From IMG/VR virus record IMGVR_UViG_2880412407_000006: 50,384 bases of DNA. One strand, 5' to 3'. Positions 48,001 to 50,384 of this stretch are shown here, in pieces; position 1 is the first letter of the stretch, and each line of letters opens with the position of its first letter. Made by a program: the position numbers. This DNA comes from a virus. Lineage: Duplodnaviria > Heunggongvirae > Uroviricota > Caudoviricetes.

Positions 48001-50384
48001 GTCGTGTCGCTCAAGAGCTGGGATGGAGTGTTCCCGACTTCAAAGGATATGCAGAGCCAGAACGAGAAGCTCATCTTAGACTACGTAACCTGAATGCCCT
48101 TCGACAGGCTGCCATGAGGCATGAAAAGAATGAGAGGGCTTTCTTCGAAAGACTGGGTACGATCAGTGACCGATATGAGGCGAGTCCTGATTTCACAGAG
48201 TATTCCGCTGTGTCTAACATAGGATACGGATTTATCCAGCAACATGATTTTCCAGGGGTGGCTATCGACGAGAATTTACAGGATGTAAATCAGATCCAAC
48301 TGTATCATGGTGCTCCTTATATCTTTACATTTGGGGATGTGGACAGACACAATTAGCGCTGATTCGTCTTTACAGTTACATAGGGTTACTACTCATAGAT
48401 ATTAACGGAGTTGATGATGGGCAATCGTGCAACATTGTATTGTATGTAAAGGCAGAGCTCCGAATTTTACTGTTGTAAGTGGGCCTGGCGGGAATGGTAT
48501 CGCCAGCATCATTGGCTTGGGTCCAGTAAAAAGAGACGCAGAAAGATGCACAATAGGCACTACGCGTCATGCATGGATTAGGTCGCTCATCATTTACACA
48601 GTACTGCTAAAAAATTATTAAGGAAAGCGCGGCACTTCGTATGTAAGAGCGTGTCGCGGTTGGCTGGTGAACTTTCGATAGTGCGAGTATTGAATGATTT
48701 CCAGCCGTTACCGATTTACGTGTTTATTAGCGAACAAACCACTCGTCAGCAGACTCCCAGGTATCTTTCAGCGTCTCCTGAACAAAAGTTTTTGCAGAAT
48801 CTTTATCGGCGGTGCGAGTAACTGAAAGGCCATCGTTGCTGGTGGATTTGATGATCACTTCTACATCGTCATAACGTTTACTGACACGTCGCAGCATTTC
48901 TTGTTGCAGGGCAGGAACAGAACCTTTTGGCATTTTGTTGATTTTGGCTGCGGGGTATCTGTGGGGCATATATGGGACATAAAAAGGCCTCAAATAAACA
49001 GCAAAATCGAGATTAGGGATTTTTAGAAAAAATACAACCATCTGAAAAAACTTAGAAAACACCCAAAAACCCACAGAATAGTAAAAAACATCTATGAATT
49101 ATGGATTTCCAGTTATATTCGCTCGGCGCAGCGTTAGTGTTTCATGAAATATTTTTTCCTGAATCATCAACGGCAATGGCGTTAATTTTGGCAATGGGAA
49201 CCTACGGTGCAGGTTATGTGGCGCGTATTGTCGGAGCATTTATTTTCGGCAAAATGGGCGACAGAATAGGGCGTAAAAAAGTGCTCTTTATTACCATCAC
49301 CATGATGGGGATCTGTACCACCTTAATTGGTGTGTTACCGACCTATGCACAGATTGGTGTTTTTGCCCCCATCTTGCTGGTGACGCTGCGTATTATTCAG
49401 GGGTTGGGTGCAGGTGCGGAAATTTCCGGTGCCGGTACGATGCTGGCGGAATATGCACCAAAAGGTAAGCGCGGAATTATCTCCTCATTTGTAGCTATGG
49501 GAACTAACTGCGGAACCTTGAGCGCAACGGCAATCTGGGCCTTTATGTTCTTCATTCTCAGTAAAGAGGAACTGCTGGCGTGGGGATGGCGTATACCGTT
49601 CCTGGCGAGCGTTGTCGTGATGGTCTTTGCTATCTGGTTACGTATGAATCTGAAAGAAAGCCCGGTCTTTGAGAAGGTTAATGACAGCAACCAACCCACA
49701 GCAAAACCTGCACCTGCTGGTAGCATGTTCCAGAGCAAATCCTTCTGGCTGGCAACAGGGCTGCGTTTTGGTCAGGCGGGTAACTCCGGGTTAATTCAGA
49801 CTTTCCTTGCAGGCTATTTAGTGCAGACGTTATTGTTTAACAAAGCAATTCCAACAGATGCATTGATGATTAGTTCGATTCTCGGCTTTATGACCATTCC
49901 GTTCCTTGGTTGGTTATCCGATAAAATTGGTCGCCGGATCCCGTATATTATTATGAATACCTCCGCGATTGTGCTGGCATGGCCAATGCTTTCTATCATT
50001 GTAGATAAAAGCTATGCCCCGAGCACCATTATGGTTGCACTGATTGTGATTCATAACTGTGCGGTGCTGGGATTATTTGCTCTGGAAAACATTACCATGG
50101 CAGAAATGTTCGGCTGTAAAAACCGCTTTACCCGGATGGCTATTTCTAAAGAAATTGGTGGTCTTATCGCTTCCGGTTTTGGTCCTATCCTGGCGGGTAT
50201 TTTCTGCACCATGACGGAATCCTGGTATCCGATCGCCATTATGATCATGGCATATTCAGTAATTGGTTTAATCTCTGCGCTGAAAATGCCAGAGGTGAAA
50301 GACCGTGATTTAAGTGCGCTGGAAGACGCTGCGGAAGATCAACCGCGTGTTGTAAGAGCTGCGCAACCTTCCAGAAGTCTGTAA

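Follow-up and report, generated by a model that had tools for sequence, protein, structure and literature searches.

The window analysed here is the whole 50,384-bp stretch of viral record IMGVR_UViG_2880412407_000006 in IMG/VR. It begins exactly at the stop codon of an integrase gene, intR, which is followed by the other genes of a Rac-like left end in the order intR-xisR-rcbA-ralR-recT-recE. Its right end carries nleC, a DinI-like gene, the arm of a prophage attachment site and an open reading frame (ORF) for an MFS transporter. The coordinates of the features that bear on the two ends, and on the recombination event proposed between them, are collected in Table 1.

Table 1. Features at the two ends of the window and at the crossover of two prophages.
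Feature	Position	Strand	Remarks
intR, Rac-type tyrosine integrase (nt 37-1236)	1-1199	-	100% identity to annotated intR; Pfam Phage_integrase and Arm-DNA-bind_2
IS629/IS1203-like IS3-family element, ~1310 bp	1200-2509		Inserted after nt 36 of intR; flanking ATC duplicated
Crossover interval of two parental prophages	34313-35102		Major tail protein gene (34338-35090) inside
nleC, type III effector zinc metalloprotease	47370-48356	+	Cargo at the prophage end; WP_000701369.1
DinI-like gene, last gene of the prophage	48727-48969	-	Pfam DinI, E = 1.2e-17; annotated WP_001120551.1
P' arm of attR, phage-derived	48970-49098		30% GC; also the 5' flanking DNA of the divergent DinI-like gene
18-bp att TGAATTATGGATTTCCAG	49095-49112		attB counterpart is the 19-bp form TGAATTTATGGATTTCCAG
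In-frame TGA from the phage arm	49095-49097	+	Ends the frame upstream of Met29; Qin arm has the same gTGAatt
11-bp identity block TTATGGATTTC, strand-exchange region of the ydfJ att	49099-49109		Identical in five junctions
3' fragment of ydfJ, codons 29-455 and stop codon	49101-50384	+	MHS-family MFS transporter; 100% identity to intact YdfJ

A first-pass annotation, made from the window alone, had proposed that a prophage end interrupts a ydfJ-like transporter gene here, which could be checked against an uninterrupted allele. Such an allele was found in strain 05-3629, where ydfJ encodes 455 aa and is flanked by rspB and ydfI. The comparison bore out the proposal: the 427-aa window ORF, which opens with MDFQLYSLGAALVFHEIFFP, matched residues 29-455 of the intact protein with 100% identity, and the DNA upstream of it was a phage arm. 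Homology between the window and the intact locus (L013) extended from nt 1699 of that locus (nt 78 of ydfJ) onward through ydfI and ended at the att core. The 28 codons missing from the window are MTIEKHERSTKDLVKAAVSGWLGTALEF. The identification of the junction is thus a matter of homology rather than of a pattern arising by chance.

The break was found between F28 and M29, within the G-x3-E-[FW]-x-D-F-x2-Y motif of the first transmembrane helix, so the earlier description of the ORF as starting in the middle of a conserved N-terminal motif was accurate. In an alignment of YdfJ with ProP and KgtP of K-12, the invariant residues of this motif were G23, E27, D30, F31 and Y34. The motif is incomplete in the window ORF, which starts with M-D-F and lacks G23 and E27. 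The NCBIfam model TIGR00883 (metabolite/H+ symporter) was matched from its position 1 by intact YdfJ, with a score of 462.9 bits, and from position 7 to position 400 by the window ORF, with a score of 453.5 bits, which is still above the curated cut-off of 443.45. By this profile match, the window ORF can be classified as a truncated member of the MHS family (TIGR00883). When the sequence of intact YdfJ was compared with solved structures, no match was obtained at E <= 1e-5.

The start codon of the window ORF is the native Met29 codon, which lies within the att core. The in-frame stop reported in the first pass was also present: the TGA starts 6 nt 5' of the ATG, with a single ATT codon in between, and belongs to the phage DNA. 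In O121 genomes, the RefSeq label of the window-type ORF is 'incomplete, missing N-terminus', and in the K-12 annotation, the same 427-aa ORF is given as a CDS. For annotation purposes, the ORF should be read as a 5'-truncated ydfJ.

To locate the site of strand exchange, five junctions were aligned: the intact attB (L013), the attR of the window, attL and attR of the K-12 prophage Qin, and the attP-like junction between tandem prophages in O121:H19 16-9255. The 11-bp block TTATGGATTTC was invariant in all five, the attP-like junction included, and it occurred once in the window against 0.06 occurrences expected by chance. The host attB reads ...CTTGAATTTATGGATTTCCAGTTAT, the attP-like junction of 16-9255 reads ...CTGTGAATTATGGATTTCAAGAGTCAT, and the window junction reads ...CTATGAATTATGGATTTCCAGTTAT. 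Because the window junction is of phage type on its left side and of host type on its right side, the exchange was assigned to 49099-49109, and attR can be placed there from the alignment. This block overlaps the interval guessed earlier, 49090-49105, and the expectation that attR could be defined to within about 10 bp was thus confirmed. When flanking near-identity is included, the att sequence extends over 18 bp in its phage form and 19 bp in its host form. These lengths agree with the '18- or 19-bp att sequence' defined for prophages integrated at ydfJ (Nakamura et al., PMC8112680, S7 Fig legend). The boundaries of Qin in the K-12 annotation lie at the same core. The junction belongs to the attR of a ydfJ-integrated lambdoid prophage (Qin or PPydfJ type), and the present element is not an intact member of that group.

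The P' arm (129 bp) had a GC content of 0.30, compared with 0.51 for the whole window, and was 78% identical to the Qin arm of K-12 over 152 nt. The AT-rich phage-end DNA that had been described upstream of the ORF was therefore found at 48970-49098, but not in the first part of the flagged interval: 48940-48969 is the 5' end of the minus-strand DinI-like gene and not junction DNA. The sequence GTGGGGCA at 48961-48968 corresponds to WTGGGGCA, of which the attP-like tandem junction holds three copies. One of these copies lies in the P' arm and two lie beside int (L001 4300-4307, 4507-4514 and 4518-4525). A similar sequence, ATGGGGCAAATTGGGGGCAAACT, was observed just downstream of intR at ttcA (L008, about 6425-6445). 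WTGGGGCA and ATGGGGCAAATTGGGGGCAAACT may represent candidate arm-type integrase binding sites common to two integrases that are 43% identical.

The distribution of the site was studied in 5426 complete E. coli genomes. The reconstructed attB was present in one piece and with 100% identity in 2006 of them, including prophage-deleted derivatives of K-12. A related prophage end at the ydfJ junction was found in 3164 further genomes (at least 80% coverage of a query composed of dinI, the arm and ydfJ), and the ydfJ site is occupied in approximately 60% of the complete genomes. The ydfJ junction is a common and well-known insertion hot spot.

Loss of part of the first helix and of the operon context suggests that the truncated YdfJ is probably inactive; a crude scan of 48600-49300 for promoters and terminators found none. 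YdfJ without residues 1-28, read through from the prophage end, might nevertheless keep or gain a function, since the ORF starting at Met29 is open and unchanged both here and beside the ancient and decayed Qin of K-12, and the site is occupied in so many genomes. However, nothing in the evidence supports a functional product, and half of the first helix is gone together with two invariant residues; such a function is considered improbable.

The cargo at the right end was also characterized. The annotation of nleC was taken from genomes identical across the whole gene, and an HEIIH motif was seen in its translation. Downstream of nleC, the segment 48478-48784 was 83.8% identical over 309 bp to the ykgJ/ecpE region of K-12 (the 5' end of ykgJ and intergenic DNA). 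It matches the 309-bp, 84% identical ykgJ/ecpE-like sequence related to 'attB-in-PP_2' in nleC-carrying prophages (PMC8112680). This segment extends into the 3' end of the DinI-like gene and could serve as a secondary attachment site within the end of the prophage. Upstream of nleC, the tail-fibre ORF at 45350-46669 contains an Ala/Ser-rich low-complexity stretch followed by a long collagen-like run of G-x-y triplets.

In the left end of the window, the intR gene is interrupted by an insertion sequence (IS). The ORF that remains, 1-1179 on the minus strand, encodes 392 aa and lacks the start of the arm-binding domain. The inserted element matches, with 100% identity, an IS3-family element found in 16-9255 within its Qin-like prophage (L007 6005-7313). 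No complete E. coli genome of the collection carried an IS at the same position of intR.

IntR is the only integrase in the window. It was 42-43% identical to the 431-aa IntQ-type Int that lies beside the ydfJ core in O121 16-9255, whereas the latter was 94% identical to the IntQ remnant of K-12. When the 431-aa protein was used as a tblastn query against the window, only IntR matched, at 42%, and no IntQ-type integrase was detected. It was also demonstrated that ttcA abuts intR in all four genomes compared (GTVSS-020, 2014C-4423, 16-9255 and K-12). In K-12, the boundary of Rac falls within the 5' end of ttcA. In GTVSS-020 and 2014C-4423, the two complete genomes with the window-type linkage of intR to ydfJ, ttcA is located 51 bp past intR. 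The ydfJ core was searched for in all fetched ttcA-intR loci and was absent from them. The integrase of the window is not the cognate integrase of the ydfJ att site, and the left flank of the window itself would be ttcA, as in the colinear genomes.

The origin of the two ends was examined by comparison with 16-9255. Window positions 1-1200 and 2510 to approximately 35.1 kb corresponded with few differences to the Rac-like prophage at ttcA in this O121:H19 genome, and window positions 34313-49471 showed 4 differences from its ydfJ prophage. Differences from the ttcA prophage started at 35102 and rose to hundreds per kb-scale bin past 38 kb. Because the match with the ttcA prophage stops at 35101 and the match with the ydfJ prophage starts at 34313, the crossover lies within 34313-35102. 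The major tail protein encoded in this interval, WP_000235098.1, has an identical annotation in both parental prophages. The window is accordingly a hybrid, in which the part from 1 to approximately 34.3 kb derives from the ttcA prophage and the part from approximately 35.1 to 49.1 kb derives from the ydfJ prophage.

The same arrangement was present in two of the eight closest complete genomes. GTVSS-020 (O121) was colinear with the window at 99.96-100% identity apart from the IS positions, and 2014C-4423 had the same linkage and the same flanks but carried an internal deletion. In K-12, the gene orientation is dbpA(+), ttcA(-), intR(-) and, further on, ydfI(-) and ydfJ(-), and the relative orientation in 16-9255 is the same. 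Since ydfJ is flipped in the window type relative to both K-12 and 16-9255, the window arrangement is the derived one and corresponds to an inversion of approximately 240 kb. Inversions between the ydfJ and ttcA prophages have been described for lineage L1 of O121:H19 (Nishida et al. 2021, PMC8767318). The arrangement of the window is this published inversion; the two agree in the serotype of the genomes, in the prophage pair and in the kind of rearrangement. The accessible text of the article gives no breakpoint, whereas here it falls in the major tail gene, at window positions 34313-35102.

Several other features of these elements were recorded. A second IS of the IS3 family, with orfA and orfB on the minus strand, is located at 15269-16440, between the early region and a hok-like gene. 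A deletion of approximately 26.6 kb (window about 16497-43138), which removed the late and tail genes, lies next to this IS in 2014C-4423. Two convergent cargo genes in the early region (13080-14715) may form a partial or variant anti-phage defence module: one is annotated as 'sce7726 family' and matches the PADLOC model 'cll' (2.4e-28), the other is annotated as 'beta family' and matches PD-Lambda-2_C (2.3e-41), and a small methyltransferase gene (12284-12757) adjoins them. The PGAP annotation of GTVSS-020 includes a 71-nt tRNA-Met equivalent to window positions of about 20478-20548, and ARAGORN found no tRNA in the whole window; this is probably a degenerate phage tRNA.

The fate of the 5' part of ydfJ was also studied. 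The first-pass annotation had expected it just past int, to the left of the window. This expectation failed: the int in question is IntR, ttcA lies past intR in the colinear genomes, and the lost segment could not be found. These 591 nt run from the 3' end of rspB through the intergenic region to nt 77 of ydfJ. It had no match anywhere in the eight closest O121 genomes at E <= 1e-20, a threshold that a shorter or more divergent remnant would escape. A two-part query composed of the O121-specific rspA-rspB'-IS junction and the reverse complement of the lost segment found one matching place in each of the eight O121 genomes and two in control genomes. In O121, homology to the intact locus ended at nt 563 of rspB and restarted at nt 78 of ydfJ.

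In 16-9255, which lacks the inversion, the cognate int is bordered on its left not by ydfJ but by another prophage, Qin-like in type, whose tail-fibre/pin/ydfK end is joined to the ydfJ prophage through the attP-like core. On the far side of this Qin-like prophage, int is reduced to an N-terminal arm-binding stub and is followed by IS66-family elements and by an rspB gene without its 3' end. In the two window-type genomes, the rspB stump lies approximately 290-310 kb from the 3' fragment of ydfJ. On these comparisons, the 5' piece of ydfJ has been deleted next to IS66-family elements in the O121 lineage (all eight closest genomes). As a separate observation, the large terminase gene of the Qin-like prophage of 16-9255 is split by an element of approximately 10 kb (L007 19527-29183; NZ_CP022407.1 924526-934182). 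With a separate integrase, an Icd-like protein, a primase, an SSB and a capsid/protease fusion among its products, this element resembles a satellite or P4-like island that has entered the prophage.

The whole rspAB-ydfJ-ydfI cluster, which we take to serve in L-gulonate utilization, is decaying in the O121 lineage. No conclusion drawn here depends on this presumed role, and a literature search for ydfJ or rspA in L-gulonate catabolism returned nothing usable. In O121, ydfI is frameshifted (L002 5774-7235), and the 3' end of rspB was lost to an IS66-family insertion/deletion (L009 10859-11419).

Taken together, a ydfJ attR produced by an IntQ-type insertion, followed by an inversion through the tail gene that gave rise to the hybrid, is the explanation in which we have high confidence. 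A lambda-like, nleC-carrying prophage was inserted by an integrase into codons 26-31 of ydfJ, leaving attR at 49095-49112. The attP (...GTGAATTATGGATTTCAAG...) recombined with attB (...TTGAATTTATGGATTTCCAG...), the exchange taking place within the shared TTATGGATTTC. This insertion separated the gene from its upstream operon and from codons 1-28, and with them from half of transmembrane helix 1, leaving a 427-codon ORF with the native Met29 as its start and a phage TGA closing the frame upstream. The integrase responsible was presumably of the IntQ type, which is absent from the window. A later homologous exchange of the RecA type would then have occurred between the identical major tail genes of the ydfJ prophage and of the inversely oriented Rac-like prophage at ttcA. 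This exchange would invert approximately 240 kb of the chromosome and swap the prophage halves, the window being one of the two products. The predicted order in this product is the attL at ttcA, intR, the Rac-like early region, the head genes, the crossover, the tail of the ydfJ prophage, nleC, dinI, attR and the 3' fragment of ydfJ. The 5' piece of ydfJ and the 3' end of rspB were also deleted next to the IS66-family elements in the O121 lineage. The order of these events, insertion before inversion, is likewise the one we infer.

Read at face value, the window could be a single intact prophage in ydfJ with its own integrase at the left end, the 5' fragment of the gene and a direct repeat then lying just past int. 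Indeed, the window runs from int to the ydfJ junction with the full lambdoid gene order between them, and this layout exists in other O121 genomes for the parental prophage, which has an IntQ-type int and is bordered by the core on either side (L011). However, the int of the window is IntR, 100% identical to the integrase abutting ttcA and 43% identical to that of the ydfJ site; the left 34 kb correspond to the prophage at ttcA and not to that at ydfJ; none of the fetched ttcA-intR loci contains the core; and even in the non-inverted 16-9255, a Qin-like prophage and not ydfJ lies to the left of the cognate int. A single intact prophage is therefore very improbable. As for the transporter, the 427-aa ORF might be a naturally short paralogue of ydfJ with a complete gene elsewhere, which the first-pass annotation had named as the case against its own reading. 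The K-12 annotation treats this ORF as an ordinary CDS, and its TIGR00883 score remains above the cut-off. Against this, the ORF and its orthologue occupy the same position in the chromosome, beside ydfI, and residues 29-455 of the orthologue match the ORF with 100% identity; the att core is the exact point at which similarity to the intact locus ends; and the 5' segment, hence any complete copy, was unmatched in the eight closest genomes. This case was excluded for practical purposes, its probability being close to nil.

It is also conceivable that the junction at ydfJ is real and that the linkage of intR to ydfJ is an assembly mis-join across the tail gene identical in the two prophages. The crossover falls within approximately 0.8 kb that is the same in both, where a short-read assembly could in principle err, and the complete genomes do not include the one from which the window came. 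On the other hand, the same linkage was found in two independently finished genomes, GTVSS-020 and 2014C-4423, and O121:H19 is reported to undergo inversions in which its ydfJ and ttcA prophages are the partners (PMC8767318). A mis-join thus seems to us to have little probability, and insertion followed by inversion is the preferred reading.

The constituents of this arrangement have counterparts in known systems. The K-12 prophage Qin lies in ydfJ, with the truncated ydfJ (b1543) at one end and ynfP and intQ at the other. It shares with the window the host gene, the core TTATGGATTTC, the resulting 427-codon ORF, the phage TGA upstream of it and a homologous arm (78%). Qin differs in having kept the IntQ remnant and the 5' piece of ydfJ (ynfP), where the window element has IntR and, presumably, ttcA; the cargo is also different, being nleC and dinI in the window element and ydfK and pinQ in Qin. 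The PPydfJ prophages and prophage clusters of STEC and EPEC are lambda-like, integrated at ydfJ, often in tandem and often nleC-carrying (Nakamura et al. 2021, PMC8112680). The right end of the window shows no difference from them, whereas the left two thirds of the element are not PPydfJ. The left end has the same gene order as the K-12 prophage Rac (intR-xisR-rcbA-ralR-recT-recE-kilR, at the 5' end of ttcA), but in contrast to Rac, the window element has the full length of a lambdoid prophage, head and tail genes included, and its right third was replaced by the ydfJ prophage. Everything described here is already known: the junction from Qin of K-12 and from the PPydfJ clusters of STEC, and both the att sequence and the O121:H19 inversions between ydfJ and ttcA from published work.

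The finding has little importance beyond annotation. A stretch bounded by an integrase gene on one side and an att junction on the other is not thereby proven to be a single prophage because recombination between prophages yields hybrids with mismatched ends. Since the attL of the IntR type and the attR of the IntQ type are mismatched, and IntR is in addition broken by an IS, the hybrid would be unable to excise by site-specific recombination. The type III effector gene nleC is thus probably held in the chromosome on a non-excisable hybrid.
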